From Cyanobacteriota bacterium (GTDB taxonomy: Bacteria > Cyanobacteriota > Vampirovibrionia > JBFMGH01): a stretch of DNA of 64,000 nucleotides. The notes below the pieces were generated by a model. That model was not told the origin of the DNA and made no database searches. It saw nothing but the letters and a program-made list of their open reading frames with translations. Below, piece by piece: positions 1 through 41,967 of the stretch. The stretch lies in the NCBI GenBank assembly GCA_040752795.1, contig JBFMGH010000264.1, positions 37,978 to 101,977 of the forward strand, read 5' to 3'. A program made the translations under genes and the position numbers. The first letter of the stretch is position 1; each line of letters begins with the position of its first letter.

Positions 1-1128
1 CCAAGTAAATTTGGTGAAAAAGTTGTAATGCGTATTCTAGATAAATCAAATATTTCTCTTGGTTTAGATCAGTTGATTACGCATGAACCTACTCTTAAAT
101 CAGTTAGAGAAGTTGTAAACCAGCCGTTCGGTATTATATTTGTAACAGGGCCTACAGGTAGTGGAAAAACAACTACATTATATAGCGCCTTGAGTGAAAG
201 AAATACTCCTGATGTTAATATATCTACTGCTGAAGATCCGATTGAGTATGATTTACCTGGTATTACTCAGTCAGAAGTTAATAAAATAATTGGTTTAGAT
301 TTTGCAAGAATATTAAGAGCATTCTTGCGTCAAGACCCGGATATCATGCTTGTTGGAGAAACAAGGGATAAAGAAACGGCTAAAATTGCTGTTGAAGCTG
401 CTCTTACTGGTCACCTTGTTTTCACTACACTTCACACTAATGATGCACCAGGTGCTATTATGCGTCTGAGTGAAATGGATGTTGAATCTTTCTTAATATC
501 AAGTTCAACCCTTGCAATTCTTGCACAGCGTCTTTTAAGAAGAATATGTTCTAACTGTAAAGAACAATATGAACCAGATGACCATGTATTAAAATACTTA
601 AGTATTGACAAGCTTGGCCATAAGGTTTTTTATAGAGGTAAGGGATGTGATACATGTAGTGACACTGGGTATAAGGGCAGGGTTGGTGTTTATGAATTTA
701 TGCGTATCAATGACCATTTAAGAGACTTGATAGCTAAAGGTTCTAACACTGCAATTATACGGCATGCTGCTCAGGAATCAGGTATGATGACACTGCTAGA
801 GTATAGCTTATGGTTGGCCAAAGAAGGCCATACCACCCTGGATGAAGTTATCAGAGTTACATTTACTGGTGAAGGTCAGGCTTCAATGTGTCCAAATTGT
901 GCTAAGCCTGTTGGAGAAGAATACTATAAATGCCCATTCTGTCAGCATGAGCTTAAACAAACCTGTCCAAGATGTAGTGCACTTATTCAAGAAGGCTGGA
1001 CAAACTGTGCTAAATGTGGCTTGAAAGTTATAAACTTTAATTATGACCAGGATTGTAATCATTGTGGTGGTGAAATATCATTAGAAATGACTGAATGCCC
1101 CTGGTGTTTTTCAAAAATTGAGTCATAA
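1..1128 (+). CDS. pilB: Type IV pilus assembly ATPase PilB/GspE family, C-terminal portion (5' end lies outside the window). It carries an extra ~85-aa C-terminal tail with multiple CxxC zinc-ribbon motifs
   Basis: Frame 1 is open from position 1. Walker A GPTGSGKTTT, the Asp box and His box (TLHTND) of secretion ATPases are present, plus the canonical tetracysteine CSNC...CDTC. After the usual C-terminus (LDEVIRVT) there are about 6 further CxxC pairs. pilT and pilC follow. Confidence 0.85.
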   Translation, partial: PSKFGEKVVMRILDKSNISLGLDQLITHEPTLKSVREVVNQPFGIIFVTGPTGSGKTTTLYSALSERNTPDVNISTAEDPIEYDLPGITQSEVNKIIGLDFARILRAFLRQDPDIMLVGETRDKETAKIAVEAALTGHLVFTTLHTNDAPGAIMRLSEMDVESFLISSSTLAILAQRLLRRICSNCKEQYEPDDHVLKYLSIDKLGHKVFYRGKGCDTCSDTGYKGRVGVYEFMRINDHLRDLIAKGSNTAIIRHAAQESGMMTLLEYSLWLAKEGHTTLDEVIRVTFTGEGQASMCPNCAKPVGEEYYKCPFCQHELKQTCPRCSALIQEGWTNCAKCGLKVINFNYDQDCNHCGGEISLEMTECPWCFSKIES

Positions 1129-1173
1129 TATAATATATGAGTAAATTTTGTAATAAAGAGTAGGAGTAAATGG

Positions 1174-2256
1174 ATGTTTCTAGAAGAATTGCTACAGTTG
1201 GTATTTGATAGGAATGCGTCAGACTTACATATTTCTATGGGTTTGCCTCCTGTTATTAGAGTTGATGGTAAACTTGTAAGGACAGATTATCCTCCATTAA
1301 CGAAAGAGGATACACAAAGACTTATATTTAGTATGTTAACAAATGAACAGAGAAGAGTATTGGAACAAAACTGGGAATTAGACTGTTCTTACGGAGTATC
1401 GGGACTTGGACGTTTTAGGGTAAACGTATATAAAGATCGTGGTAATTATGCAGCTGCTTTACGTTCTATTTCGACCAATGTTCCTACATTTGATCAATTG
1501 GGATTGCCTGTTATAGTTAAGGAAATTGCTGAAAGGCCTAGAGGCCTAGTGTTGGTAACAGGGCCTACAGGTTCTGGTAAGTCTACAACACTTGCAGCTA
1601 TGGTTGATCACATTAATTCTACAAGAGCAGAGCACATACTAACAATTGAAGACCCTATAGAGTTTGTTCATACATCTAAAAGAAGTGTAGTTCACCAGAG
1701 AGAATTAGGCCAGGATACCAGAAGTTTTAACAATGCTTTAAGAGCAGCTCTCAGGGAAGATCCAGATGTTATACTGGTAGGTGAGATGAGGGACCTTGAA
1801 ACCATTTCTCTTGCACTAACAGCTTCTGAAACAGGTCACTTAGTGTTTGGCACCCTTCACACTTCATCGGCTTCTTCAACTGTTGATCGTATTGTAGACG
1901 TATTTGAGTCTTCTCAGCAGCAACAGATACGTATTCAGTTATCAAACTCTTTAGTAGCTGTATTCAGTCAAACTCTTTTACCCAAGTTATCACCAGATGG
2001 AACTAAAGATGGTCGTATTATGGCTCAAGAAATAATGATTGTTACACCTGCTATATCTAACCTCGTTAGAGAAGGTAAAACAGCACAAATATACTCAGCC
2101 ATACAAACTGGTGGTAATTACAAAATGCAAACTCTTGAAATGGCACTTAGAGAGTTGTATGTTCAAAACTTAATAACTTACGAAGATGCAATGAGCAAAA
2201 CAAGTAGGCCTGACGATCTAAAACGGATGATAGGTTCTGCTATGGCAGGTGTATAG
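1174..2256 (+). CDS. pilT: Twitching motility ATPase PilT (pilus retraction)
   Basis: 360 aa. N-terminus ASDLHIS, Walker A GPTGSGKSTT and a PilT-family His box are present. An AGGAG-like RBS (taggagt) sits upstream. The gene lies between pilB and pilC. Confidence 0.9.
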   Translation: MFLEELLQLVFDRNASDLHISMGLPPVIRVDGKLVRTDYPPLTKEDTQRLIFSMLTNEQRRVLEQNWELDCSYGVSGLGRFRVNVYKDRGNYAAALRSISTNVPTFDQLGLPVIVKEIAERPRGLVLVTGPTGSGKSTTLAAMVDHINSTRAEHILTIEDPIEFVHTSKRSVVHQRELGQDTRSFNNALRAALREDPDVILVGEMRDLETISLALTASETGHLVFGTLHTSSASSTVDRIVDVFESSQQQQIRIQLSNSLVAVFSQTLLPKLSPDGTKDGRIMAQEIMIVTPAISNLVREGKTAQIYSAIQTGGNYKMQTLEMALRELYVQNLITYEDAMSKTSRPDDLKRMIGSAMAGV

Positions 2257-2282
2257 TTTTTATGAGAGGAACGAATTTATAA

Positions 2283-3521
2283 ATGCCTCAATTTAAATAT
2301 AAAGCCAGGGATGAAAATGGTAAACTAGTTGAAAATGTTGCGATATCAGATAGTATAACTGATTTAAGACAACAACTAAAAGATAAAGGGTTATATCTTG
2401 TTGAAGCTGAAGACTCTGAAAAAGGTGGATCATCAAGTTTACTTAACCTTGATCTTAATGAAATGCTTGGCAAATATGCAAAAGTTAAACTAAAAGATAT
2501 GGTTATCTTTAATAGACAGTTTTCTGCACTTATTAATGCTGGTGTTGCTATGATGAGAGCTTTAACTCTGATGGCTGATCAGTCTGAAAACCCTAAAATG
2601 CGGATGATACTTAACAAGGTTAAAAGTGATGTTGAGCAGGGTGTATCATTATCTGACGCTTTTGCAAGACACCCGGAAACTTTTGATCAGTTATATGTCA
2701 GTATGATAAGGGCTGGTGAAACTGGCGGTGTTCTTGATGAAGTACTTAATAGAATAGCACAATTTATGGAAAATAGAGCACGGTTGATTGGACAGGTTAA
2801 ATCAGCTATGGCTTACCCTGCTATTGTTACTATTCTGGCTCTCATTATATTTTTTGTTATGTTGACTTTTGTTTTGCCTAAATTTTCTCAATTATTTGGT
2901 CGTTTAGGTGGTGAATTACCTGCGTATACACAGTTTCTTATTAATATAAGTGAATTTTTAAGGTCTGCGTGGTTAATTGTTATAATTCTAGCTGTAATAG
3001 GTCTGGTATTCTTGTTTAAGCAAATCTATGCAACTGATACAGGCAGGTATTATATTGATAAGATATCTTTGAAAGTGCCTGTTTTTGGAGATTTATTTAA
3101 GAAAGTAGCTGTTGCTAGATTTACCAGAACCTTTGGTACGTTGGTACGTAGTGGCGTTCCTATTCTTAGTTCGCTTGAAATTGTAGAAGAATCTGCTGGC
3201 AATGCTGTTTTAGCTAGAGTAGTTGCTGAAGTTAGAGATGAAGTAAGCCAGGGTGGTAGAATTAGTGATCCTCTTGATAGATCACCTCTTTTCCCTCCGA
3301 TGGTTGTTTCTATGATTGCTATAGGTGAAGAAACCGGTGAACTTGATGCGATGCTTTCTAAAATCGCAGATTTTTACGACATGGAGGTTGAAGGAGCCGT
3401 CAATGCTTTGACTTCTTTGCTTGAACCTCTTATGATTGTTGTTTTGGGAGGTATGGTTGGTGCTGTTATTGTGGGTATGTACCTGCCATTGTTCAAAATA
3501 TTTGATAAGATCGGTGCTTAG
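2283..3521 (+). CDS. pilC: Type IV pilus inner-membrane platform protein PilC (GspF family)
   Basis: 412 aa with duplicated GspF-like cytoplasmic domains and 3 TM segments, typical PilC architecture. It follows pilT directly. Confidence 0.9.
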   Translation: MPQFKYKARDENGKLVENVAISDSITDLRQQLKDKGLYLVEAEDSEKGGSSSLLNLDLNEMLGKYAKVKLKDMVIFNRQFSALINAGVAMMRALTLMADQSENPKMRMILNKVKSDVEQGVSLSDAFARHPETFDQLYVSMIRAGETGGVLDEVLNRIAQFMENRARLIGQVKSAMAYPAIVTILALIIFFVMLTFVLPKFSQLFGRLGGELPAYTQFLINISEFLRSAWLIVIILAVIGLVFLFKQIYATDTGRYYIDKISLKVPVFGDLFKKVAVARFTRTFGTLVRSGVPILSSLEIVEESAGNAVLARVVAEVRDEVSQGGRISDPLDRSPLFPPMVVSMIAIGEETGELDAMLSKIADFYDMEVEGAVNALTSLLEPLMIVVLGGMVGAVIVGMYLPLFKIFDKIGA

Positions 3522-3532
3522 AGGAGAAATTG

Positions 3533-3811
3533 ATGACTTTACAAACTTGTGGTCTCAGTAGACGTCAGCTGGAGACTATGTATAAAACTACTTATGAAAA
3601 AATGAAATTTGAAATAATTAGAGAGTATGGTAATGCACTCATATTACAGGGTAGGGCAAGAGATGTTGGCTCTCTTAGTGATGTTGAAAGAGATATGGAA
3701 GCTATGTGTGATGCTTATGCCAAATCTTTAATGAATATAACATCAAGAGTTATTGAAGCCAATAATAAAAAACTCTTAGAGGATTTTGAATCTATGAAAA
3801 AATCTCCTTAA
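3533..3811 (+). CDS. Small hypothetical protein (92 aa) co-transcribed at the end of the pil operon
   Basis: The ORF has a GAGGAG RBS 6 nt upstream of its ATG and lies 9 bp after the pilC stop. It is followed by a terminator hairpin. I see no recognisable motif. Confidence 0.4.
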   Translation: MTLQTCGLSRRQLETMYKTTYEKMKFEIIREYGNALILQGRARDVGSLSDVERDMEAMCDAYAKSLMNITSRVIEANNKKLLEDFESMKKSP

Positions 3812-3833
3812 AAGTGAAAGGGAGATTTTTTTG
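3801..3833. terminator. Rho-independent terminator hairpin (aatctcctt/aaggagatt) followed by a T-run. It is shared between the convergent pil operon and purH
   Basis: An inverted repeat AATCTCCTT-loop-AAGGGAGATT is followed by TTTTTTTG on the plus strand and by an A/T-rich run on the minus strand. It sits between the stop of ORF 3533..3811 and the purH stop. Confidence 0.5.
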
Positions 3834-3844
3834 TATTTTTTTAT

Positions 3845-5392
3845 TTAATGTTTAAAATGTCTTATTCCTGTAAATACCATAGATAGATTGTATTTATCAG
3901 CTGTAGCAATAACTTCTTTATCTTTAATACTGCCACCTGGTTGTATTATTGAACTTATTTTTGCTTGTACAGCGGCCTGAATATTGTCAATTGCAGGAAT
4001 AAAACCATCACTTGCTACTACAGCATCCTTTGCTTCATCACATGCTTGTCTTAGTGCTATTTCCATAGAACCTATACGGCTTGTCTGGCCACAGCCAATG
4101 CCCAGTGTTTGACCATTTTTTGCTACAACTATTGCATTAGAGTTGATGTGTTTTACTACTTTCCAGGCAAAAAGTAAATCGTCAAGCTCTGCTTCAGAAG
4201 GCTTTTTCTTTGTTACTATGTTAAAGTCTTTTTGGGTGATCATTTTATTGTCAGCATTTTGAATTAAAACCCCTCCGGCAATTTGTTTTATTATATGGTT
4301 ACTTATGAGATTTACTTCTTCAGGTACTTCGATTAGCCTTAGATTTTTCTTTTTATTAAATATCAGACGTGCTTCATCTGAAAACTTGTTAGCTACTATT
4401 ACTTCTAAAAAGACACTAGTCATAATATCAGCTAAATCAGCGTCTATTAAACCATTAATACCTACTATGCCACCAAAAGAACTTATAGGATCAGCACTAA
4501 GGGCTTTTTTGAATGCTTCAAGATGTGTTTTACCTATGGCTACTCCGCATGGATTACAGTGTTTTATTATACATGCTGCAGGTATGTTGTTAAATTCATC
4601 AATTACTTTAAGCGCTGATGTTACATCGATTAAATTATTGTAAGATAATTCTTTCCCTTGAAGAACTTCGAATGCCAATTCATCTTTAGGTGCATCAGAA
4701 TAATTGTATAATCCTGCTGATTGATGAGGGTTCTCTCCATATCTTAGATCATCCACTTTTGTTAGTTCAATCTTAAATGATTCAGGAGTATATGCTAGAT
4801 CAAATCTATTTAATAATGTTTGATAGACGATATTATCATAAGTATGTGTGTGCTCAAATGCTTTAGCAGCAAGTTTTTTACGAAATTTCATGCTTGTTTT
4901 TCCGTCGTTTTTGTCCATATCTTCTAATAATTCTTCATAGTCTTCATTAGAACATACTACTGTAACGTGATGATAATTTTTAGCAGCGCTTCTTATTAGG
5001 GCTGCTCCGCCTATATCAATATTTTCAATTAGTCTGTCAAGAGTTGAATTTTTAATGCTGGCTACTTCTCTAAATGGATATAGATTAACAATTACAAGAT
5101 CAATTGGTTGGATATTATGTTCTTTTAGTGTTTTCATATGTTCTTTATTGCTTCTATCTGCAAGAATAGCACCGTGTATTTTAGGGTGAAGTGTTTTTAC
5201 CCTGCCATCAAGCATTTCAGGGTAATCTGTAAGGGTGCTTATCTTTTCACAATTTATCCCAGCAGATTTTAATGTTTCTCTGCTTCCTCCTGTAGATATT
5301 ATTTCGAAATTAAAATTATTTATTAGACTTTTTGCTAATTCAACAATTCCATCTTTGTTGAAAACACTTATTAATGCTCTTTTTTTGTTCAT
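3845..5392 (-). CDS. purH: Bifunctional AICAR transformylase / IMP cyclohydrolase
   Basis: 515 aa. The N-terminal MGS-like domain (ALISVFNKDGIVELAKSL, ISTGGS) and the C-terminal AICARFT domain are the standard length and motifs for PurH. Confidence 0.93.
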   Translation of the reverse strand: MNKKRALISVFNKDGIVELAKSLINNFNFEIISTGGSRETLKSAGINCEKISTLTDYPEMLDGRVKTLHPKIHGAILADRSNKEHMKTLKEHNIQPIDLVIVNLYPFREVASIKNSTLDRLIENIDIGGAALIRSAAKNYHHVTVVCSNEDYEELLEDMDKNDGKTSMKFRKKLAAKAFEHTHTYDNIVYQTLLNRFDLAYTPESFKIELTKVDDLRYGENPHQSAGLYNYSDAPKDELAFEVLQGKELSYNNLIDVTSALKVIDEFNNIPAACIIKHCNPCGVAIGKTHLEAFKKALSADPISSFGGIVGINGLIDADLADIMTSVFLEVIVANKFSDEARLIFNKKKNLRLIEVPEEVNLISNHIIKQIAGGVLIQNADNKMITQKDFNIVTKKKPSEAELDDLLFAWKVVKHINSNAIVVAKNGQTLGIGCGQTSRIGSMEIALRQACDEAKDAVVASDGFIPAIDNIQAAVQAKISSIIQPGGSIKDKEVIATADKYNLSMVFTGIRHFKH

Positions 5393-5620
5393 AATAGATT
5401 CCTTAATAAATTAATTTGAATTAGTATATATCAAAGTTATTTCATAATGTATTAAAAACTATTTAGAAAAGTTACGAGGTGTCTAATCCTTGAAGATTTG
5501 TGTAAATTAAATGATCTTTATTTACCTGATAGTATGAAAATGTCTATGCATTTAATTAAATTAGTTTTTCTATTATAATATATATAGATGAATTATGAAT
5601 GGGTAAGGGCTTGTTAACCG

Positions 5621-6601
5621 GTGATTCCTGTACTAGTAAAAGAATTAGAAGGACTTGAGCAGCTTCCGTTTGATTTATACAATAAAAATGGCCGCTTGAT
5701 TTTTCGTTCAGGTGAAGTTCTGTCAGCTGGTAAAGTGTTGCAGCTTAGGTATATTGATGTTTTTAGAAAAACTGATGATGAAATACCGGTAGAGAAAAAA
5801 CCTGTTGAAGCTGTTCCTCCAAGTATAGATTGGGAAACTAAAGAAGAAACAAGACCTACCAAGGCGATTCTTTTTGATTCTCCACGAATTCATGAAATTA
5901 ATCCTGATTCTATTATTGACCCTCAATTACAGGTATCAATTAAAACTTCTGTGCATACACTTATTGATACTATGACAAGTAAAGAAATTCCAGACCCTGT
6001 TGTGTATAATGCAGCTAGAGATGAAATAGTTAACGAAGTGTTGGGTAGTGTTGATAAAGTTCATCACTTAAATCAGCTGAGGGTTTTTGATGATTATGAT
6101 TATTCTCACGCAGTTAACGTTTCTGTTTTAGCTGTTATGTTAGGATATAAATTGGGAATGACTGGTACTGGTTTGCGAACTCTCGCACTGGGATCCTTAT
6201 TGCATGATATTGGTAAAACGAGAATACCGAAGCAGATTTTGCATAAACCCGGTGCTCTGACTCCTAAAGAATATGAAATAGTTAAACTTCATGCCCCCTT
6301 AGGTTACAAAATAATAAAAGATGAATTAGGCTTGACTGAAGATATAGCAAGAATAGCATTGGAACATCAAGAAAAATTTGATGGAACTGGCTATCCTAAA
6401 GGGCTTTCTGGAGATTCTATTGATTCTATGGCCCATGTTGTTAGTGTTTGTGACGTTTATGATGCTTTGGTCTCAACAAAGGTATATTCAAACCCAAAAC
6501 CATCTCAAGATGCTTTGAAAATTATGTTAAACTATGGTAGTAGCTGGTTTAATCCATCAGTTTTATATAAATTTACTCATATGACTTCATTTAAGGAATA
6601 G
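5621..6601 (+). CDS. HD-GYP domain c-di-GMP phosphodiesterase, paralog 1 (GTG start)
   Basis: HD motif LLHDIGKTRIP and GYP motif DGTGYPKGL are present. The N-terminal ~50 aa domain is shared with the downstream paralog. Confidence 0.85.
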   Translation: MIPVLVKELEGLEQLPFDLYNKNGRLIFRSGEVLSAGKVLQLRYIDVFRKTDDEIPVEKKPVEAVPPSIDWETKEETRPTKAILFDSPRIHEINPDSIIDPQLQVSIKTSVHTLIDTMTSKEIPDPVVYNAARDEIVNEVLGSVDKVHHLNQLRVFDDYDYSHAVNVSVLAVMLGYKLGMTGTGLRTLALGSLLHDIGKTRIPKQILHKPGALTPKEYEIVKLHAPLGYKIIKDELGLTEDIARIALEHQEKFDGTGYPKGLSGDSIDSMAHVVSVCDVYDALVSTKVYSNPKPSQDALKIMLNYGSSWFNPSVLYKFTHMTSFKE

Positions 6602-6623
6602 TTTTATATAAAGGTGTAGTGCC

Positions 6624-7586
6624 TTGATCAGGGTTAATGTAAAAGAGCTGGAAGGAAAAAAGGTTTTAGAATATGACCTTTATACGGATAAAGGAAAACT
6701 TATCTGTCCTAGAGGTACACAATTAACTCCTGGTAAAATTCTTCAACTTAGCTATACAAAATTATTTAGACAGATTGAAGAGAATGTTCCTCAGCCTGAA
6801 CCAGAAAAAATTGAGCCTAAACCTGTTCATGTTGCTGTTGTAAAAGAACCAAGAAGCACTGAAATACTTGAAGAACCAGCTGACTGGGATTCTGTAATTG
6901 ATAAAAATGTTAAGGTGACTGTTCTGAAGTCTACCAGAGAATTTCTCTCTGATATAGAAGAAGGGAAATCTCCTGATGTAGCTATGTGTGAGGTCGTTAG
7001 AGATAAGCTGGTAGCAGAAGTAGCTGAAAAAGTTGAACAGGTCGATTATCTGGGTCAATTGAGGATGTTTGATGAGTATACTTATTCTCATAATGTTAAT
7101 GTTTCAGCATTAAGTGTTGCATTGGCGATGAAAATAGGAATGAAACAGAATGATATAAAAGATCTAGCATTAGCAACACTACTTCACGATATTGGTAAGA
7201 TGCGTATTCCTAAAGAAGTTCTTAATAAACCAGGTCGGCTTACTGATAAAGAATTTCAGGTAATGAAGTTACATGCTCAGCTTGGATTCCAGGTTATTAA
7301 AGAAGAGCTAAAATTGCCTTATAAGATCTCAAGAGTGGCATTAGAGCATCAGGAAAGATTTTCTGGTTCAGGGTATCCCAGGAATCTTAAAGGTGATGAA
7401 ATAGGTTTATTTTCTCAAATATGCGCTATAGCAGATGTATATGATGCTATATCGTCAAAACGTGTTTATAAGCCTGCCAGAACTTCTAAAGAAACTATTA
7501 AGATTATGTTAAACGAAGGTTCTGCTTCTTTTAATCCTTCTCTGTTATACAAGTTCGTTCATATGTGTAATTATTCTGACGAATAA
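6624..7586 (+). CDS. HD-GYP domain c-di-GMP phosphodiesterase, paralog 2 (TTG start)
   Basis: HD motif LLHDIGKMRIP and GYP motif SGSGYPRNL are present. It is about 50% identical to the upstream paralog, a tandem duplication. Confidence 0.85.
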   Translation: MIRVNVKELEGKKVLEYDLYTDKGKLICPRGTQLTPGKILQLSYTKLFRQIEENVPQPEPEKIEPKPVHVAVVKEPRSTEILEEPADWDSVIDKNVKVTVLKSTREFLSDIEEGKSPDVAMCEVVRDKLVAEVAEKVEQVDYLGQLRMFDEYTYSHNVNVSALSVALAMKIGMKQNDIKDLALATLLHDIGKMRIPKEVLNKPGRLTDKEFQVMKLHAQLGFQVIKEELKLPYKISRVALEHQERFSGSGYPRNLKGDEIGLFSQICAIADVYDAISSKRVYKPARTSKETIKIMLNEGSASFNPSLLYKFVHMCNYSDE

Positions 7587-7707
7587 ATTATGTATATAAA
7601 AACCAGATAATACTAAATAATGTAAAGATTTAACTTTACTACTCTTCACTTTCATAATCATAAGACGATAACGAAAATAGGTAAGTGTGTCCGTTAAGGG
7701 GTCATAA

Positions 7708-10700
7708 TTGAGTTCCGTAAATTATTTCGGAATCAGTAATTCCATCAATGCATGGGGGATTTATAGTCTATTTAAAACAAATAGTCTATCTATTAACAAT
7801 GATTTACAAAAATTAGAAACTTCTATGGCCCTTACTCTTGAAAATGAAGACAGGTATGTTTCTTCACAATCTCCGGTTTTAATGGGGCTTTATAGGGCAA
7901 TTCCTTCAGAGAGGGCAGAGCAACTTCTAAGCGAGGGTTATAGTGATGTTTCAGCTATTGTTAAAGCTGTTTCTGAGTATATGACCTCGATCGAAGATAC
8001 TGCTGTGTACTCTGAACCAACGGCTCAAAATGATAGAACTTTTAATATAAATGATCCTGCACCGAATACCTCTACCTATGATCTTGTTAATTTATACAAT
8101 AATACAGTTAATATTAATACTAATGCTGGTACTGATACAGTAAATCTTGGAGGAACGTATAATACTATTCAGGTCGATGTGGGTTTAGGTGATGATACAG
8201 TAAATGTTGATACTTCCAGTGCAAATGAGTTTACTATTGTCGGTGGCCCCGGTACCAATACAGTCAATATGTCTGGAAATGTAACGGACTATGCATTCCA
8301 GGATAACGGCGACAACACACTTACCATGACGGACACATACTCTGGGGCCACTGTTGTTATTGATACAAACATTGAACTGGTTAATTTTGCTGATGGATCA
8401 ACAATGACTTTTGATGGAACTGATATTACCATCAATTCTGCTGCAACTGGTGAGCAAATGTTAATTGATACAACCAATTCTTCTTATGTCCTAGATATGA
8501 ACAGTGGTGATGATACACTTGTTGTATCTGGTGTTGGTAATACAGTAGATGTTAATGTGAGTGCTGGTAATGATTTTGTTGTTGTTGATGGAACTAACAA
8601 TAATGTAAATATTCAGTTTGAAGATAAACAAGATACTCTCTATGTGGCAACAGGAAATAATAATATTGTTAATGTTGATGGAGGTGACTACACAGATTCT
8701 CTTATCCTTCAGGGTGACGTACTTGATTGGACTTTAGTAGGTAATACATATACACACAATACTACGGGAACAGCTGTAACTGTTAATGACATAGAAAATG
8801 TATATTTTGGACAACTTGTAGATGACCCGGCTGGAAGCTCTTCTAATCTGGATTATACAGCTCTAAATAACAGTGGTAATGTTGTTTATTTAAATGATGG
8901 TAATGACACTGTTGCTCTGGGTGGCACAAATAACTACATTCAACTTGATATGGGTAGTGGAACAAATACTGTTACCATCGATGACACAAATTATAACAAC
9001 TTTGTTCTCGCTGGAGGTAGCGGCACAGATACTATTAGCTTCATTGGTAACGTTGGAGATTATACTTTTCAGACAAATGACGATGGCACACTTACCATAA
9101 AAAATGCCAGTTCATTTGCTACAACCACCATCGACTCTAATATAGAAAACATTCTATTTGCAGATAATTCTTCTTTAGCTTTTAACGGAACAGACTTCTC
9201 TATTAAAACAACTATTAATGCTGATACGGTAAATATTACTGGTTCTAACAATACTGTTTTTATTGATACATACAATGGTGCTGATTCTGTTAGTATTACT
9301 GGAACAAATAACACTGTTAAACTTAATTTAGCTAACGATGACGATAGTGTTTATGTTGGAATTGGTGAAAACAATGATATTACAATAGATGGTGCTCATG
9401 GGGTTGATACACTTACTTTGCAGGGAATGGCTGCTGATTGGACACTTACAGGAACCCTGCCTGGTCAAACATACTATGAGAACATTTATTCTGGAACTAA
9501 AGTTACAATATTAACCAGCATAGATAATGTGCAGTTTGATAATGGTCTTGTAGTTTACGATACTCCCGGTATGGATAGCTTTATTAATGCTCTTGGTTAT
9601 AATGATACCAGTATTAATATAAACACTAATGATGGAGATGATACAGTATCTTTAGATGGAACAAATAATAATGTTACTGTAAACTTTCTGTCTGGAAACG
9701 ATTATGTCCATATTGACGATAGTACGAATAGTACATATTTTATTAATGGAGGCTCTGGAGAGGATACTGTCGTATTAAATGGTGTTATGGCTGATTATAA
9801 TATTGTTAATAATCCTGATGATACCATGACTATTACAAATACTATATCAGGTGCTGCTGTAACACTGGATCCATATCTTGTTGAAAATATAGTTCTTATG
9901 GATGGACCTATTCAGGGTAGAGTTGTTTTACGTGGAACTCCTCTAGATGACACATTCGATTTAACAGCATTCAATAATGAAACTATACAGGTTGATTTGA
10001 TGTCTGGAAATGATTTGTTAACTGTTGGTGGTACAAATAATGATATTGATTTAAATCTTGGTGCAGGTGATGATATTGTTAATATTGATGACTCTAACAG
10101 TAATATTTTCAATGTTAGTGGAGGCCTTGGTAATGATATAATAAATATGGCAGGAGTTTTAGGTGACTATACATTTACCGATAATGGAGATAGTACATTT
10201 ACACTTACTAATGTTATATCTGGTGCAGCTACTACTGTAGATTCGACCGTTGAAACAATAAATCTTGGAGATGGATCTGTATTATCTTATGATGGAAGCA
10301 CAATTACTATAACAGATGCTCCTGGTAGATCGAATACTTTTGATATGACAACTTACAGTAATTCGAGTTTTATTATCAACGCAAATGACCAGGATGATAT
10401 GGTTATTATTGGTGGTCTTAATAATGATATTACTGCTAACTTGAATTCTGGTAATAACACAGTTAATATAGATGACTCAAATATAGGAACGTATACTGTT
10501 AATGGAGGAACCGGAACTGATGTAATTAATATGGCTGGAAATCTATCTGATTACCAGTTTAATGATAATGGAGATAGTACATTTACACTTACTAATGTTA
10601 TATCAGGTGCTACAACTACAATTAATTCGACTGTAGAAACAATTAATTTGAATGATGGAACTGTTATTGGTTATGATGGTTCAACAATAACTATTACGGA

Positions 10701-13281
10701 TGGTCTGGGTAATTCCAGCAATATTGATCTATCTACTAGTAATAATACATCCTTTATTATAAATGCTGGAGATAGCGATGATGTGGTTAATCTTGCAGGA
10801 ACTAATAATAATGCAATAGTAAATCTTTCTTCTGGTACAAACACTTTAAATATTGATGATTCAAACAATAATACATTTGTGGTAAATGGGGGAGTGGGGA
10901 TTGATACAGCTAGTCTCTCCGGGGTTTTAGCTGATTATACGTTTACTGATAATGGTGATAATACGTTAACGGTTACTAATACAGGGTCAGGTGCTACAAC
11001 TACAATTGATATTGCTGTAGAAAATATTAATTTGTCTGATGGCTCTATTGTTAACTTTGATGGTTCATCTATAACAATTACTGATGCTCCGGGTAATGCT
11101 AGTAATTTTGATCTAACTGGTGGTGTTAATACTGTATTTACCATTAATGCTAATGATAATAATGATACAGTTGATCTTGGTGGTTTAAATAATGATGTTA
11201 CTGTTAATTTAAATTCTGGTAATAATACTGTTAATGTTGATGATACAAATAATAATACTTTTGTTATAAGTGGTGGTAGTGGTACTGATGTTGTTAATAT
11301 GTCTGGTAATGTTTCTGATTATACTTTTATAGATAATGGAGATAACACACTTACTTTAACAAATAATATTTCTGGAGCTACTACAACTATTGATACATCT
11401 ATTGAAACAGTAACATTAGGGGATAATGTTAATGTTAATTTTGATGGTTCTACTATTACTCTAACTGATGCTCTTGGATCTTCTACTACATTTGATCTAA
11501 CAGCGCAAAACAATTCTAATATGATTATTAATACAGGTAATATGGATGATATAGTTAATCTTGGTGGCTCTAATAATGATATGACAGTCAACTTAATCTC
11601 TGGCAATAATAATGTAAATATTTCTGACCAGAATTTTAATACGTTTATTGTCAATGGTGGTACGGCTACAGATACGGTTAACTTTACTGCGGGTCTTGAT
11701 TATACATTAACAGATAATGGTGATACTACTTATACAGTTACTAATAATTTGTCAGGTGCTAATACAACATTTGGTACTTCAATTGAAACTATTTCCTTTA
11801 CGGATATACCTGGATCCTCTTCTACTTTTTCAGTTAATGATAGTTTTGCGGCCAGTATTATTGTAAATGCAGGTAATAATAACGATACTCTGAATCTGGG
11901 AGGTGCTGGAAATGATATTACGGCTAACTTAAATAGTGGTACAAACGTTGTAAATGTTGATGATACAGTTTCTGCTACATATAATATAAATGGTGGTAGC
12001 GGTACTGATTCTATTAATTTGACTGGTATTTTATCTGATTATTCATTCCAGGATAATGGAGATAGTACACTTACAATAACAAATACACTTTCTGGTGCAA
12101 CAGTAACAGTTGATGCTAATATTGAAACAATTAACCTGGCTGATGGTAAAACTTTAAGCTATGACGGTACTGATCTAACTATTAATGATACACCTGGAAG
12201 TTCTTCTGCATTTGATATAACAACTTTTACAAATACTTCATTTATTATTAATACAGATAATCAGAATGATATTGTTGACCTTGGTGGAAATAATAACACG
12301 GCGGTAGTAAATCTGGCTTCTGGTGTAAAGACTGTAAACATTGATGATTCTAACAATAATACATTTGTAGTTAATGGTGGTGTAGGAACAGATACAATTA
12401 ATTTATTTGGAAACATTTCTGACTATTCATTCCAGGATAACGGAGATAGTACACTTACAATAACAAACACACTTTCTGGTGCAACAGTAACAGTTGATGC
12501 TAATATTGAAACAATTAACCTGGCAGATGGTAAAACCTTAAATTATGATGGTACAGATTTAACAATAAATGATTTACCTGGAAGTGCTACAAACTTTGAT
12601 ATAACATCTAATGCAAATACCTCTTTTATTATTAATGCTGGTGATCAAAATGATATAGTTGATCTTGGTGGAAATAATAACACGGCGGTAGTAAATCTGA
12701 CTTCTGGTGTAAACACTGTAAACATTGATGATTCTAACAGCAATACATTTGTAGTTAATGGTGGCGTGGGAACAGATACAATTAATATGAGTGCTAATTT
12801 CTCTGATTATATATTGATGGATAATCTTGATGGAACTCTAACCATTACTAACAATATTTCAGGAGCTACTACCACAATTGATTCTTCTATAGAAACGGTT
12901 AATTTTAATGACTCTTATTCAATATCTTATGATGGATCTGATATTACTTTAAGTGGTTTTACAGCTGGTAATGATAACCTTTCTATTGATGGAATTGATA
13001 CAACATATAATTTTGTAACTACAGATGCAGGTATGGATAATATAACTATAGATGGTATTAATAATAATGTTAATATAGATTTAGGAACCGAAGACGATTC
13101 GGTATACGTAGCAGTAGGCAATAACAATGTTATAAATATTGATGGTAGCGGCCAGACAGATACACTTACATTAGAAGGTGCAGCACTAGATTGGAACCTG
13201 GTAGGTAGTACATATACTCATACTGTTTCTGGTACATCAGTTACTATTTCAAATCTTGAAAATGTCCTCTTTACAGCCTGA
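7708..13281 (+). CDS. Giant (1857 aa) Asn/Thr/Asp/Gly-rich, cysteine-free repeat protein with RTX-like calcium-binding nonapeptides. Probable secreted or surface adhesin-like beta-roll/beta-helix protein
   Basis: A single ORF with about 11 tandem 128-aa modules, each carrying GGxGxDx[IV]x (for example NGGVGTDTINL, NGGSGTDSINL, SGGLGNDIINM). There are three related cap modules (GDVLDWTLVG..IENVYF; GMAADWTLTG; GAALDWNLVG..LENVLF), the last at the extreme C-terminus. There is no N-terminal signal peptide. The start codon is uncertain (TTG 7708 immediately after a stop; the first ATG lies about 40 codons downstream). Confidence 0.75.
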   Translation: MSSVNYFGISNSINAWGIYSLFKTNSLSINNDLQKLETSMALTLENEDRYVSSQSPVLMGLYRAIPSERAEQLLSEGYSDVSAIVKAVSEYMTSIEDTAVYSEPTAQNDRTFNINDPAPNTSTYDLVNLYNNTVNINTNAGTDTVNLGGTYNTIQVDVGLGDDTVNVDTSSANEFTIVGGPGTNTVNMSGNVTDYAFQDNGDNTLTMTDTYSGATVVIDTNIELVNFADGSTMTFDGTDITINSAATGEQMLIDTTNSSYVLDMNSGDDTLVVSGVGNTVDVNVSAGNDFVVVDGTNNNVNIQFEDKQDTLYVATGNNNIVNVDGGDYTDSLILQGDVLDWTLVGNTYTHNTTGTAVTVNDIENVYFGQLVDDPAGSSSNLDYTALNNSGNVVYLNDGNDTVALGGTNNYIQLDMGSGTNTVTIDDTNYNNFVLAGGSGTDTISFIGNVGDYTFQTNDDGTLTIKNASSFATTTIDSNIENILFADNSSLAFNGTDFSIKTTINADTVNITGSNNTVFIDTYNGADSVSITGTNNTVKLNLANDDDSVYVGIGENNDITIDGAHGVDTLTLQGMAADWTLTGTLPGQTYYENIYSGTKVTILTSIDNVQFDNGLVVYDTPGMDSFINALGYNDTSININTNDGDDTVSLDGTNNNVTVNFLSGNDYVHIDDSTNSTYFINGGSGEDTVVLNGVMADYNIVNNPDDTMTITNTISGAAVTLDPYLVENIVLMDGPIQGRVVLRGTPLDDTFDLTAFNNETIQVDLMSGNDLLTVGGTNNDIDLNLGAGDDIVNIDDSNSNIFNVSGGLGNDIINMAGVLGDYTFTDNGDSTFTLTNVISGAATTVDSTVETINLGDGSVLSYDGSTITITDAPGRSNTFDMTTYSNSSFIINANDQDDMVIIGGLNNDITANLNSGNNTVNIDDSNIGTYTVNGGTGTDVINMAGNLSDYQFNDNGDSTFTLTNVISGATTTINSTVETINLNDGTVIGYDGSTITITDGLGNSSNIDLSTSNNTSFIINAGDSDDVVNLAGTNNNAIVNLSSGTNTLNIDDSNNNTFVVNGGVGIDTASLSGVLADYTFTDNGDNTLTVTNTGSGATTTIDIAVENINLSDGSIVNFDGSSITITDAPGNASNFDLTGGVNTVFTINANDNNDTVDLGGLNNDVTVNLNSGNNTVNVDDTNNNTFVISGGSGTDVVNMSGNVSDYTFIDNGDNTLTLTNNISGATTTIDTSIETVTLGDNVNVNFDGSTITLTDALGSSTTFDLTAQNNSNMIINTGNMDDIVNLGGSNNDMTVNLISGNNNVNISDQNFNTFIVNGGTATDTVNFTAGLDYTLTDNGDTTYTVTNNLSGANTTFGTSIETISFTDIPGSSSTFSVNDSFAASIIVNAGNNNDTLNLGGAGNDITANLNSGTNVVNVDDTVSATYNINGGSGTDSINLTGILSDYSFQDNGDSTLTITNTLSGATVTVDANIETINLADGKTLSYDGTDLTINDTPGSSSAFDITTFTNTSFIINTDNQNDIVDLGGNNNTAVVNLASGVKTVNIDDSNNNTFVVNGGVGTDTINLFGNISDYSFQDNGDSTLTITNTLSGATVTVDANIETINLADGKTLNYDGTDLTINDLPGSATNFDITSNANTSFIINAGDQNDIVDLGGNNNTAVVNLTSGVNTVNIDDSNSNTFVVNGGVGTDTINMSANFSDYILMDNLDGTLTITNNISGATTTIDSSIETVNFNDSYSISYDGSDITLSGFTAGNDNLSIDGIDTTYNFVTTDAGMDNITIDGINNNVNIDLGTEDDSVYVAVGNNNVINIDGSGQTDTLTLEGAALDWNLVGSTYTHTVSGTSVTISNLENVLFTA
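8080..13260 (+). repeat. Intragenic tandem repeat array with a 384-bp period (about 11-13 copies). Some copies are nearly identical at the DNA level
   Basis: For example, 12041-12190 and 12425-12574 are almost identical, and 10181-10250 matches 10565-10634, both offset by exactly 384 bp. The period equals the 128-aa protein module. Confidence 0.8.
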
Positions 13282-13514: not shown

Positions 13515-13587
13515 GCGGGTGTAGCTCAGTTGGTAGAGCGCTAGCCTTCCAAGCTAGTTGTCGCGAGTTCGAACCTCGTCGCCCGCT
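13515..13587 (+). tRNA. tRNA-Gly (anticodon TCC)
   Basis: Acceptor GCGGGTG/CGCCCGC, D-arm AGCTCAGTTGGTAGAGC, anticodon stem-loop CTAGC-CTTCCAA-GCTAG, T-loop AGTTCGAAC. Confidence 0.85.
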
Positions 13588-13595
13588 TTTATTGA

Positions 13596-13672
13596 GGCGA
13601 GTGTAGCCAAGAGGTTAAGGCCCCGGATTGTGGTTCCGGTATTCGTGGGTTCGAGTCCCATCACTCGCCCCA
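13596..13672 (+). tRNA. tRNA-His (anticodon GTG) with G-1 and an encoded CCA
   Basis: An extra 5' G pairs with discriminator C, the tRNA-His hallmark. Anticodon stem-loop CCGGA-TTGTGGT-TCCGG, T-loop GGTTCGAGTCC, and 3' CCA is encoded, followed by a T6 run. Confidence 0.85.
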
Positions 13673-13695
13673 CTTTTTTGTATAAGGACTATATA

Positions 13696-14451
13696 ATGTC
13701 TAATTATAAAACTGATGCTATTGTCCTTAGAACATATGATTTTAAAGATTATGACAGAATAATTGTACTCTATTCTAAAGATAGAGGTTTAATAAGAGCA
13801 GTTGCCAAAGGTGTTAAAAACCCAAAATCTAAGCTGAGAGGCAGGTTAGAGCCTCTTATGGCTTCTGGCTTGATTCTTTATGAGGGTAGAAATCTTGATA
13901 GTATTTCTCAATGTGATACTATAGAATCTTTTAAACATCTGAGAAAAGATCTTAAAAAGATTACTTATGCCATGTACTTTGCTGAACTTGCTTCAGCTTT
14001 TGGTGTTGAGAATGATCCTCAATCTGAATATTTTTATAATTTTATTTTTAATAGCCTAAAAGAGCTTGAAACGTCCGATGAAAATGTTATATTAGAAACA
14101 TTAATTGTTAATTATAGTTATAAACTAATTTCCTGGGCTGGTTATAAACCAGTTTTTGATTATTGTGGGCAATGCAGATCTAAAATTTTAACTTCAACTG
14201 ATATATGCTTCAATACTGATTCAGGTATGGCAGTATGTCCTGATTGTAGTAGTAAAAATGCCAATTTAACCTGTCTGCCCCAGAATCTTTATCAATACTT
14301 ACTTAACCTCGCTGGTATTTCAAGTTTTCCGTTTAATTTAGATGTAAATACTGTTACAAAAGCGCATAGTCTGTTATTTGAGTACATTGACAAAAAATCG
14401 AACTATAAATTAAAAACACCGAAGTTGATAGAAACTCTATGTTTAAGTTAA
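13696..14451 (+). CDS. recO: DNA repair protein RecO
   Basis: The N-terminal OB-fold region (AIVLRTYDFKDYDRIIVLYSKDRGLIRAVAKGVKNPKS) and the C-terminal Cys4 zinc motif (CGQC...CPDC) fit RecO. The real start is ATG 13696; the longer ORF 13558.. would overlap the tRNAs. Confidence 0.85.
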   Translation: MSNYKTDAIVLRTYDFKDYDRIIVLYSKDRGLIRAVAKGVKNPKSKLRGRLEPLMASGLILYEGRNLDSISQCDTIESFKHLRKDLKKITYAMYFAELASAFGVENDPQSEYFYNFIFNSLKELETSDENVILETLIVNYSYKLISWAGYKPVFDYCGQCRSKILTSTDICFNTDSGMAVCPDCSSKNANLTCLPQNLYQYLLNLAGISSFPFNLDVNTVTKAHSLLFEYIDKKSNYKLKTPKLIETLCLS

Positions 14452-40152: not shown

Positions 40153-40824
40153 TTGGAAGATGATTCTGATGCTTCTCAACAACAAAACTCTGAAATGCTT
40201 GATTTAAATAAAAGGTCAGATGCTGTAGAACATTATAATGCCGGGGTTGATTTTTATAGAGATAAAAATTATAAAGATGCTGTTAAAGAATTCCAGGCTG
40301 CTTTAAGTTTAGAACCAGAGTTATTAGAAGCTAAAAGTAATATGGCTATGACTTACTCTAAAATGGGTAAACATAAAGAAGCAATATCTTCATTTAAAAG
40401 TGTTTTAACTGAGCGACCTAATCATGTTATATCTATTAATGGCCTTGCAGATGCTTACTTTAAAACAGGTCAAATTGATGCAGCCATAGAACAATGGAAC
40501 TTATTGCTTGATATTGATCCTGGATATGACCTTGCTCATTACAATATTGGAACATCTTTTCAGAGGAAAAAAGAATTTGAAAAAGCTGTAGAGGAATATA
40601 AAAAAGCTATAAATATTAACCCTTCTTTTGCTGAGGCTTACTACAATCTTGCAACCATTTTTGAAGCACAAAATGATTTTGAAAATGCTTACTTAATGTA
40701 TCAGAAAGCTGCAATGATTAATATGAGAGCTAGTTTTGCCGAAAAAGCTATGAAAAAAGCGACCAAGCTTGAAGAAATTCTTAGAAAACAAAATAAGAAA
40801 CAGAAGAAAAAAGAATCAAAATAA
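40153..40824 (+). CDS. TPR-repeat protein (TTG start as given). An in-frame upstream segment encodes a signal-peptide-like sequence
   Basis: There are four to five TPR units (AVEHYNAGVDFYRDKNYKDAVKEFQAAL...) and a Lys-rich C-terminal tail. Confidence 0.6.
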   Translation: MEDDSDASQQQNSEMLDLNKRSDAVEHYNAGVDFYRDKNYKDAVKEFQAALSLEPELLEAKSNMAMTYSKMGKHKEAISSFKSVLTERPNHVISINGLADAYFKTGQIDAAIEQWNLLLDIDPGYDLAHYNIGTSFQRKKEFEKAVEEYKKAININPSFAEAYYNLATIFEAQNDFENAYLMYQKAAMINMRASFAEKAMKKATKLEEILRKQNKKQKKKESK

Positions 40825-40839
40825 GGTGGTGTAAATCTT

Positions 40840-41967
40840 TTGCAAATATTATCGAATATCCAGAAAAACCTGGCTAGTGTAGTTGTTTTTAATAGGTTTT
40901 TTTCTCTTTCATTATTAATAGTTTTATTGATATACTTTGCCCAAATTACCTATGAAACCAATGTTGTAACAATTGGGTTACTTATATTTGCTACTGTAAT
41001 ACTTCTATTTAACCTATTATTAATTGAAATAGTAGGTCAAATAATACGTAAAAAGTCTATTTTAACTAATGAAATTTGCCTGTGGCTTGGTAAAGTTATA
41101 ACAATATCAACTACAGTTGTTGTTACAATAACAACTATTGCTACTGGAAACTTACATGTAGCGGGCTTTTTTACTATTCCTATAATTATATCAGCTTTTT
41201 TAGCCGATGGATTTCTCAATAAAATAGGTATTTTTTCTATTGTTTTCTCATTGATATACTACCATTCGACCCTGTTAACTAATCAAATATTTATTAATAA
41301 CCTTGTTTTTTATGATCCCTCTGCTATTGTATGTGCTGGAAATATTCTATGCATAATTTTGCTGGCTGGAATAATTGTTAATAAAACAAAACAAACAAGT
41401 CAAAAAGCTAATATACTTCAATCAATGGCTACTACTGATGTACTTACCGGATTAATTAACCGTAGATATTTTGATAGAAGAATTACGGAAGAAGTTTCTC
41501 GTTCTAAAAGGCATAGTACAAACTTAACTTTAGCACTATTTGATATTGATCACTTTAAGCGTATTAATGATACATATGGGCATACTATTGGAGACAAAAT
41601 TTTAAAAGAGCTAGGTGAGCTTGTCTTAAACAATACAAGGGAATCAGATATCTCAGCCCGATATGGAGGAGAAGAATTTGCACTTATTCTTCCGGAAACT
41701 ACACAGATGGAAGCTTCTGATTTACTTGAACGTCTCAGACAACTTATTGAAGGGCATACGTTTAATAAGGATGATGTACCAGTAATAGTAACTGTTAGCG
41801 TTGGAATTGCCCAATTTGATTATGAAGATTCAATAGAAGACTTTATTGAAAAAGCAGATGCCTCATTGTATCAGGCAAAAAGAACAGGTAGAAATAAAGT
41901 AGTATTTGGTACCTTTACTACTCCAAAATTAAATCTTCAAAAAGCCAATAATTATCAGAATGTATAA
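40840..41967 (+). CDS. Membrane-bound diguanylate cyclase (GGDEF domain)
   Basis: About 6 N-terminal TM helices precede a GGDEF domain with an intact RYGGEEF active site and an RxxD-region (RESD). Confidence 0.85.
   Translation: MQILSNIQKNLASVVVFNRFFSLSLLIVLLIYFAQITYETNVVTIGLLIFATVILLFNLLLIEIVGQIIRKKSILTNEICLWLGKVITISTTVVVTITTIATGNLHVAGFFTIPIIISAFLADGFLNKIGIFSIVFSLIYYHSTLLTNQIFINNLVFYDPSAIVCAGNILCIILLAGIIVNKTKQTSQKANILQSMATTDVLTGLINRRYFDRRITEEVSRSKRHSTNLTLALFDIDHFKRINDTYGHTIGDKILKELGELVLNNTRESDISARYGGEEFALILPETTQMEASDLLERLRQLIEGHTFNKDDVPVIVTVSVGIAQFDYEDSIEDFIEKADASLYQAKRTGRNKVVFGTFTTPKLNLQKANNYQNV

Follow-up and report, generated by a model that had tools for sequence, protein, structure and literature searches.

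The closest structural relative by architecture of the proteins described here is Bd1817 (PDB 3TM8), in which an N-terminal domain (NTD, residues 1-78) is followed by linker helices (residues 79-146) and then by an HD-GYP domain; a peptide was bound in the NTD cleft, its authors proposed a protein-protein interaction, and neither activity nor binding of c-di-GMP (cyclic dimeric guanosine monophosphate) was detectable (Lovering et al., PMC3188283). DUF3391, found almost only with HD-GYP, is made of four strands, a Pro-rich insert of 0-48 amino acids (aa) and long helices, and enzymes with the DUF3391-HD-GYP architecture, PA4108 among them, are active by themselves (Galperin & Chou). A third system is the beta-i4 insert of Escherichia coli RNA polymerase (PDB 3LTI), which consists of two BBM2 modules. 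We analyzed a stretch of 64,000 nucleotides (nt) from a Cyanobacteriota bacterium (contig JBFMGH010000264.1; hereafter the window), which carries two adjacent open reading frames (ORFs), ORF1 and ORF2, encoding HD-GYP paralogues (Table 1). The pair belongs, as a diverged member, to a known family that is structurally solved but functionally uncharacterised, and forms a diverged subfamily of an architecture already described. Judged by profile comparison, its N-terminal module is homologous to the beta-part of the Bd1817 NTD as well as to BBM2 modules in the inserts of RNA polymerase.

Both window proteins show the same order of parts as Bd1817 (a small N-terminal beta-domain, a helical linker and a C-terminal HD-GYP domain), and share with its family a variable insert rich in Pro and, after it, long helices that run into the HD-GYP domain. 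BLASTP alignment of ORF1 with ORF2 gave 146 identities over 329 positions (44%, with 64% positives; E = 5e-101). A preliminary description of this DNA had called the two proteins HD-GYP paralogues about 50% identical; paralogy and family hold, whereas the identity applies only to the first 52 residues (50%). Its observations on the sequence of the N-terminal region were otherwise confirmed. The module of about 50 aa is conserved, with its motif kept in about 100 full-length homologues, far above chance, and a 53-position hidden Markov model (HMM) of the module found exactly two copies, one in each ORF, in the six-frame translation of the window (next best E > 1). The module is not a REC, PAS or GAF domain as far as Pfam (E <= 10) and NCBIfam (E <= 1) searches of the N-terminal region can tell, neither of which gave a match. 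Matches of the N-terminal 54-158 residues to DUF3653 (E = 0.03) and VC1465 (E = 0.03) were treated as noise. The linker is indeed rich in Pro and Glu, which together account for 28% of ORF1 residues 51-100 and 38% of ORF2 residues 51-92, compared with 13-14% of the whole proteins. In neither protein do these 40-50 residues align with the rest of the family.

An AlphaFold2 model of ORF2 (mfc3d70dbb60e), built from a 102-sequence alignment, had a mean predicted local distance difference test score (pLDDT) of 91.3. Residues 1-50 were modeled as short strands with one helix at 36-42 (pLDDT about 94), and residues from about 51 to 90 were predicted to be disordered (pLDDT 50-65). A single-sequence AlphaFold2 model of the same protein reached a pLDDT of 38 and was discarded. 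Conservation within the module is limited to two glycines and hydrophobic positions, with no conserved Arg, Asp or Gln. Some family members (P0124, P0138, P0166 and P0240) carry very long acidic or repetitive tethers, in proteins of up to about 460 aa, indicating that tether length is free to vary. In a rough neighbour-joining tree of the family (identity-type distances, midpoint rooting), ORF1 and ORF2 fell into different subfamilies; a recent tandem duplication was rejected on this basis, and the pair is therefore old. The ORF1 sequence is identical to P0044, from an NCBI 'Cyanobacteriota bacterium' metagenome-assembled genome (MAG), and the same protein is encoded on contig L001; named homologues of the pair come from MAGs of Melainabacteria, Gastranaerophilales and Vampirovibrionales.

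We then searched the module profile against 1.84 billion representative proteins, which returned 156 matches at E <= 1e-3. Among the 150 listed of these were 70 HD-GYP proteins, 15 T2SSE-type ATPases, about 59 short contig-end fragments and 6 spurious repeat proteins. The last group (P0147, P0169, P0218, P0222, P0255 and P0259), rejected as module carriers, comprises giant Ig/RTX, RHS, SpaA, fn3 and Clip repeat proteins, whose repeated matches fall on a short beta-strand part of the profile. Two tandem module copies occur in 460-580-aa HD-GYP proteins from higher-GC bacteria (P0185, P0210, P0214, P0215, P0235, P0250, P0251, P0257 and others), following the pattern v.v.eL.pGq.La.dlyd.dG.lLl..G..lT...l..L...gi, and Pfam annotates only the HD domains in them. 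Unlike DUF3391, as far as reported, the module is also found on T2SSE ATPases in the Melainabacteria lineage. Two versions of the profile were used below, a narrow one drawn from Melainabacteria only (A3), and one broadened with the tandem-module HD-GYP proteins (A4).

Comparison with Bd1817 was carried out for the whole protein and for the module alone. The full family profile aligned without a break to 3tm8 (profile positions 3-268), and Foldseek aligned 3tm8 along its whole length (about 350 columns; TM-score 0.57 and root-mean-square deviation 19, for the whole protein and not the module alone). The module-only HMM scored 10 bits against the Bd1817 N-terminus (P about 3e-5, in one planned comparison), and hhalign of A4 against the Bd1817 NTD, represented by 119 orthologues, gave a probability of 89-91% (P = 1-2e-6, 51 columns), against a reversed control at 0.5%. 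Of the 78 NTD residues, the module accounts for about the first 57 only, and the RxxD of the Bd1817 NTD is not conserved in the module in either the family or the hhalign alignments. The catalytic domains differ as well: Bd1817 is missing the GYP Tyr along with several residues of the consensus. In the window proteins, by contrast, GYP and KPG are kept, as is RxxK in ORF2, but HQE takes the place of HHE.

The relation to RNA polymerase emerged from searches of the PDB, in which the top eight matches of A4 were all beta/beta' inserts of this enzyme (E = 5.6e-5 to 0.01). As a direct BBM2 test sequence we used residues 225-343 of E. coli beta (rpoB), which scored 18.5 bits with A3 and 23.9 bits with A4, both BBM2 repeats being in register; the best shuffled controls scored 6.2 and 9.9 bits, respectively (2,000 shuffles generated), and the reversed sequence about 0 bits. 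Hhalign of the module against BBM2 gave 87-88% for each repeat. The module resembles BBM2 in its length of about 50 aa and in its Gly-containing hairpin followed by a helix, and resembles beta-i4 in occurring as tandem copies, here in HD-GYP proteins of other bacteria. It differs in that the RNA polymerase copy is an internal insert of a core subunit, whereas the module is N-terminal and tethered, and sits on signalling proteins. A link between BBM2 and HD-GYP was absent from the searchable literature, which did not include the original BBM2 paper (Iyer, Koonin & Aravind 2004). The main value of these comparisons is annotation: a 50-aa module missed by Pfam and NCBIfam joins the Bd1817 NTD and BBM2, and its tandem versions precede many HD-GYP domains.

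The 15 module-headed ATPases, which are PilB/GspE-like, carry the module in the position of MshEN. One of them (P0129) is about 40% identical to canonical PilB proteins; a canonical Walker A is present in only 3 of 14, whereas the CxxC zinc motifs persist. In turn, the HD-GYP relatives nearest to the family have MshEN in place of the module, an architecture already listed by Wang et al. (2016). With both N-terminal domains found on both catalytic domains, all four combinations of module or MshEN with HD-GYP or T2SSE exist in the lineage. At each of the four MshEN-HD-GYP loci examined (L009, from the ACD20 Melainabacterium, L010, L011 and L014), the gene that follows encodes a protein headed by the module (E = 2e-13, 4e-14 and 9e-15 in a scan of all loci, and 1e-16 for L014 tested alone). 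The first gene of these pairs encodes MshEN-HD-GYP with a canonical HHE...GYP motif, and the second encodes the module followed by a PilB-like ATPase that has usually lost Walker A (reduced to a 177-aa short form in L011). The pairs come after REC-Hpt-REC genes, near sensor kinases. The window PilB shares the MshEN architecture of the MshE/PilB-type ATPases described by Wang et al. (2016); its full-length form on contig L001 (1250-3244) consists of MshEN, T2SSE and zinc ribbons, and the best NCBIfam model is type IVa PilB. Both catalytic domains can thus be headed by either the module or MshEN, in the same N-terminal position, but the module shows no sequence relation to MshEN.

A precedent for an HD-GYP protein acting on type IV pili by protein-protein contacts is RpfG of Xanthomonas (REC-HD-GYP), which controls pilus motility via complexes with GGDEF and PilZ proteins. 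Catalysis-independent roles are mentioned in the literature. The window proteins differ from RpfG, in which the N-terminal domain is REC and the partners are others, and show no sign of PilZ or GGDEF partners. The module-ATPase genes next to MshEN-HD-GYP genes give indirect support to a link between HD-GYP proteins and pilus ATPases; for such a link the preliminary description had invoked synteny, which did not hold up.

We propose that the pair are soluble HD-GYP-family proteins of the Y/F subgroup, each built from the beta-module, a disordered tether, a two-helix stalk and the catalytic domain. The module would be a protein-docking domain rather than a small-ligand sensor, because it has no conserved polar ligand-site residues, because the Bd1817 cleft held a peptide, and because it is exchanged with MshEN on the same catalytic partners. 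The flexible tether would let the module hold the HD-GYP domain on its partner, most plausibly a PilB-family ATPase complex or a protein also bound by such ATPases (a module-to-ATPase contact that we infer from domain arrangements in sequence), so that hydrolysis, or mere sensing, of c-di-GMP could take place locally at this machine. The paralogues differ in RxxK, and may act on different nucleotides or as a heterodimer. To this explanation as a whole, a Bd1817-like pair with a docking module and a PilB-family partner, we give roughly an even chance. A more specific form of it is tentative and, in our estimate, some way short of that: the module and MshEN may be partner or interchangeable docking domains coupling HD-GYP to a PilB-family (pseudo)ATPase in two reciprocal forms, with module-HD-GYP meeting MshEN-PilB in the window, and MshEN-HD-GYP meeting the module-ATPase in the REC-Hpt-REC operon. 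If true, reciprocal docking would make up a c-di-GMP/pilus-motor signalling unit not described before, and would give a first functional handle on the DUF3391/BBM2-type N-terminal domains, which are widespread in HD-GYPs but uncharacterised. The occurrence of one module on HD-GYPs and on mostly Walker-A-less PilB-like ATPases provides a testable hypothesis on the role of the N-terminal domain, open since the 2011 structure of Bd1817.

Results that weigh against this explanation came from the profile comparisons, the active site, the neighbouring PilB and the gene neighbourhood. Searched against the PDB, the narrow profile gave weak matches, with E about 0.1, to both beta-i4 repeats (3lti, E = 0.12), and Bd1817 was absent from the listed matches; hhalign of A3 with the Bd1817 NTD likewise reached a probability of only 33-44%. 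Some profile drift is possible, since the stronger values depend on adding tandem-module HD-GYP proteins to the profile. By hhalign, the Bd1817 NTD and BBM2 gave no direct match to each other, and the module profile is therefore the intermediate between them. Pfam PF11871 (DUF3391) matched 0 of 102 family members at E <= 5; this miss is uninformative because Bd1817 orthologues also lack the PF11871 annotation. The absence of detectable activity in Bd1817 counts on the same side.

For the catalytic domain, both ORFs matched Pfam HD_5 (PF13487) and HD above gathering scores. The best matches by sequence and by fold were PmGH from Persephonella marina (4MCW) and PA4781 (4R8Z): sequence matches to solved HD-GYPs were PmGH (4mcw, E = 1.9e-31), V-cGAP3 (5z7c), PA4781 (4r8z) and DvhD (9rbz), and the same four were matched by fold (Foldseek, 4mcw at E = 1.7e-10). 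We mapped 102 family members on PmGH. The metal ligands H156, H188/D189, H217, H242 and D271 (PmGH H189, H221/D222, H250, H276 and D305) are present in both ORFs and invariant, or conserved in at least 99% of members; K192, K202-P203, G250-Y251-P252, D150 and D274 are shared by all or at least 90% of members. The substrate-contact motifs G250-Y251-P252 (GYP), K202-P203-G204 (KPG) and K192 (the HDxGK lysine) are kept, as are the equivalents of the PmGH D183/K225 catalytic pair. Six of the seven core metal ligands are retained, as are the c-di-GMP-contacting residues, apart from the RxxK change in ORF1, the window family resembling PmGH in its HD, H250, H276, D305, K225, KPG and GYP equivalents. 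The RxxK motif (PmGH R314/K317) is R280/K283 in ORF2 and K/S in ORF1 and a few orthologues; a Lys-to-Ser variant of RxxK has been reported to be still active.

The family departs from PmGH, whose N-terminus is of GAF type and whose trinuclear site includes E185, at two positions of the metal site. At the E185 position, 79 of the 102 members have Tyr and 20 have Phe, within a Y-T-Y triplet; such a cluster is named in the Y/F subfamily, with a predicted binuclear site (Bellini et al., PMC4159591), and the triplet together with the absence of a carboxylate at E185 places the window family in that subfamily. The equivalent of H277 is Gln in 98 of the 102 members and in both ORFs (EHQEKFDGTGYP in ORF1, EHQERFSGSGYP in ORF2), four members keeping His. 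The full HHExh[D/N]GxGYP signature is thus not found, ORF2 also having Ser at the D/N position. In PmGH, H277A essentially abolishes activity (Bellini et al., PMC4159591). The label phosphodiesterase, given to the pair at first, is insecure because this one essential metal ligand is replaced (PMC4159591), although membership of the HD-GYP family stands; from the residues retained, catalytic activity of the pair is plausible, not assured.

These substitutions are also what favours reading the pair as catalytically impaired c-di-GMP receptors or adaptors, which would bind through GYP, KPG and RxxK and signal by protein contacts. Bd1817, without activity or c-di-GMP binding, and the presence of DvhD, a c-di-GMP-bound HD-GYP receptor, among the fold matches point the same way. 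We regard this as improbable, given that the other metal ligands and the D183/K225 equivalents are conserved, that four members keep His, and that Gln can ligate metals; the near-invariance of the Gln argues for a selected, working site over decay. In either case, the near-invariant His-to-Gln change defines a testable subgroup, an unusual metallo-enzyme or a receptor.

The state of MshEN in the lineage bears on the proposed partner. The MshEN domains of the lineage, including that of the neighbouring PilB, fail both the strict and the relaxed c-di-GMP-binding motif, and PilB of the window type scored 27 bits against a cut-off of 38 bits on NF053729, the NCBI MshE-related motif model. Since its MshEN (L001 1250-1450) fails the motif and its score is below cut-off, canonical c-di-GMP control of the neighbouring PilB is doubtful. 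The loss of the binding motif leaves room for a substitute, and the module takes the MshEN position on PilB-like ATPases, so it could be imagined that the module is itself a receptor for c-di-GMP or a related dinucleotide, replacing MshEN on HD-GYPs and PilB-like ATPases. This is very unlikely: the 24-residue MshEN motif, RLGxx(L/V/I)(L/V/I)xxG(L/V/I)(L/V/I)xxxxLxxxLxxQ, is absent from both modules in strict or relaxed form, PF05157 (T2SSE_N) has no match in them, and the lack of conserved Arg, Asp and Gln, with the Bd1817 NTD RxxD not conserved, argues against it. The RNA polymerase relatives of the module are not known to bind nucleotides.

We compared gene order at related loci, for which a related-locus scan with ORF2 returned one genome. 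Five close relatives (L001-L004 and L012), whose ORF2 orthologues are 67-73% identical, show the gene order seen here, tandem HD-GYP pair included. The downstream genes (recO, an MFS transporter gene and glycosyltransferase genes, which follow the repeat protein) are equally collinear in close relatives. In three family members with 40-48% identity, the gene is unpaired and lies among unrelated neighbours, without pil genes nearby. Adjacency to pil genes therefore represents clade-level collinearity rather than a conserved functional cluster, because the order occurs only in close relatives. The preliminary description had placed the pair between the pil genes and a giant repeat protein and argued from this position for a pilus link; the order is as it stated, but an oppositely oriented purH and 228 nt of intergenic DNA intervene, and the argument itself fails.

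The lost synteny in distant members, the intervening purH and the equal conservation of housekeeping neighbours are what would be seen if the pair were generic housekeeping c-di-GMP phosphodiesterases, with the module serving dimerisation or autoregulation (as Galperin & Chou suggest for DUF3391) and the pil position accidental; enzymes such as PA4108, active alone, fit this as well. We consider it an unlikely account, though one to be taken seriously, as it leaves unexplained both the module on PilB-like ATPases (15 of the classifiable matches among those listed) and the module-ATPase genes that follow MshEN-HD-GYP genes at four of four loci.

The preliminary description had gone further, reading the N-terminal region as a new sensory domain and the pair as a dedicated c-di-GMP output module controlling pili and a giant adhesin. 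In its favour, gene order is kept in the five close relatives, and no curated model recognises the module. It is nevertheless highly improbable and largely refuted, since synteny is not kept outside one narrow clade. The module is not novel either, having detectable homologues of known structure through the profile comparisons with the Bd1817 NTD and BBM2, and the Pro-rich insert had already been described for the family. A domain of known type and pil synteny that is not conserved, the two outcomes named beforehand as speaking against that reading, are essentially what we found. The length of the 'adhesin' slot varies between 224 and 2131 aa, no family, signal or secretion-system evidence speaks for it, and no membrane or periplasmic component of Lap-like adhesin control lies near the pair.

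Transcription of the two genes was considered from the flanking sequence (Table 1). Co-transcription of ORF1 and ORF2 is probable, as suggested by the 22-nt spacer, its AAGGTG and the absence of intrinsic terminators, none of which was found around the ORF pair. A promoter scan of 5393-5620 gave matches at chance level only. No Rfam family, riboswitches included, matched in a scan of 3400-8000, which indicates that there is no c-di-GMP riboswitch upstream of ORF1.

Table 1 Coordinates of the HD-GYP pair, its parts and flanking genes in the window, and of the MshEN-HD-GYP loci.
Feature	Position	Strand	Details
ORF1, HD-GYP paralogue 1	5621-6601	+	326 aa, GTG start; KxxS in place of RxxK
ORF1 BBM2-like / Bd1817-NTD-like beta-module (residues 1-51)	5621-5773	+	module HMM E = 1e-20, family alignments
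ORF1 Pro/Glu-rich variable tether (about residues 52-99)	5774-5917	+	28% Pro + Glu; unalignable across family
ORF1 helical stalk (about residues 100-148)	5918-6064	+	transferred from ORF2 via BLASTP alignment
ORF1 HD-GYP domain	6065-6598	+	LLHDIGK and EHQEKFDGTGYP; Pfam HD_5, residues 163-314, E = 5.5e-30
ORF2, HD-GYP paralogue 2	6624-7586	+	320 aa, TTG start; canonical RxxK
ORF2 BBM2-like / Bd1817-NTD-like beta-module (residues 1-51)	6624-6776	+	module HMM E = 8e-25, pLDDT ~94
ORF2 Pro/Glu-rich disordered tether (residues 52-92)	6777-6899	+	38% Pro + Glu; pLDDT 50-65
ORF2 two-helix stalk (helices 94-112 and 119-136)	6900-7046	+	model; equivalent to Bd1817 linker helices
ORF2 HD-GYP domain	7047-7583	+	LLHDIGK, EHQERFSGSGYP, NKPG, KRVYK; Pfam HD_5 E = 3e-31
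AT-rich intergenic region, presumed promoter region of two-gene unit	5393-5620		228 nt, common to divergent purH
Spacer between ORF1 and ORF2	6602-6623	+	22 nt, AAGGTG Shine-Dalgarno-like, without terminator
pilB (N-terminus cut by window start), pilT, pilC	28-3521	+	context
purH (AICARFT/IMPCHase)	3845-5392	-	context; between pil genes and HD-GYP pair
Repeat protein	7708-13281	+	context; 1857 aa, 128-aa repeats; no family
MshEN-HD-GYP + module-gene pair	L009 5443-8243		
MshEN-HD-GYP + module-gene pair	L010 8001-10649		
MshEN-HD-GYP + module-gene pair	L011 5127-6949		
MshEN-HD-GYP + module-gene pair	L014 7001-9661		

The repeat protein downstream of the pair, without a Pfam or NCBIfam match, consists of repeats 128 aa (384 nt) long, in which D, N, T and G are abundant. 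The orthologous slot encodes 224, 1132 and 2131 aa in three relatives, and this difference in length suggests that repeat number changes quickly.

Among the pil genes, the PilB C-terminus (window 889-1125) is an unusual extension with several zinc ribbons (Pfam DZR, Zn_ribbon_3), which is kept in L002-L004 (proteins of 664-687 aa). Directly after pilC lies a 93-aa ORF (3530-3811), whose position and size (89-92 aa) are kept in L001-L004; it matches no family except for a weak PilN match (E = 0.0095), and may represent a component of the pilus that has gone unrecognised. A MAG labelled 'uncultured Gammaproteobacteria bacterium' (L012; CAZFBA010000002.1) also has the pilB-pilT...HD-GYP-HD-GYP locus, its ORF2 orthologue being 67% identical; the taxonomic label is probably wrong.

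The only other c-di-GMP gene among the window ORFs scanned encodes a GGDEF protein (40840-41967) with an N-terminus that crosses the membrane several times, an intact GGEEF active site and a RESD I-site, beside a TPR gene at 40153-40824. In the listed recO ORF (13558-14451), RecO_N begins at residue 47, and orthologues are 250-252 aa long; the listed start is therefore too early, the real one probably being an internal Met near 13696.

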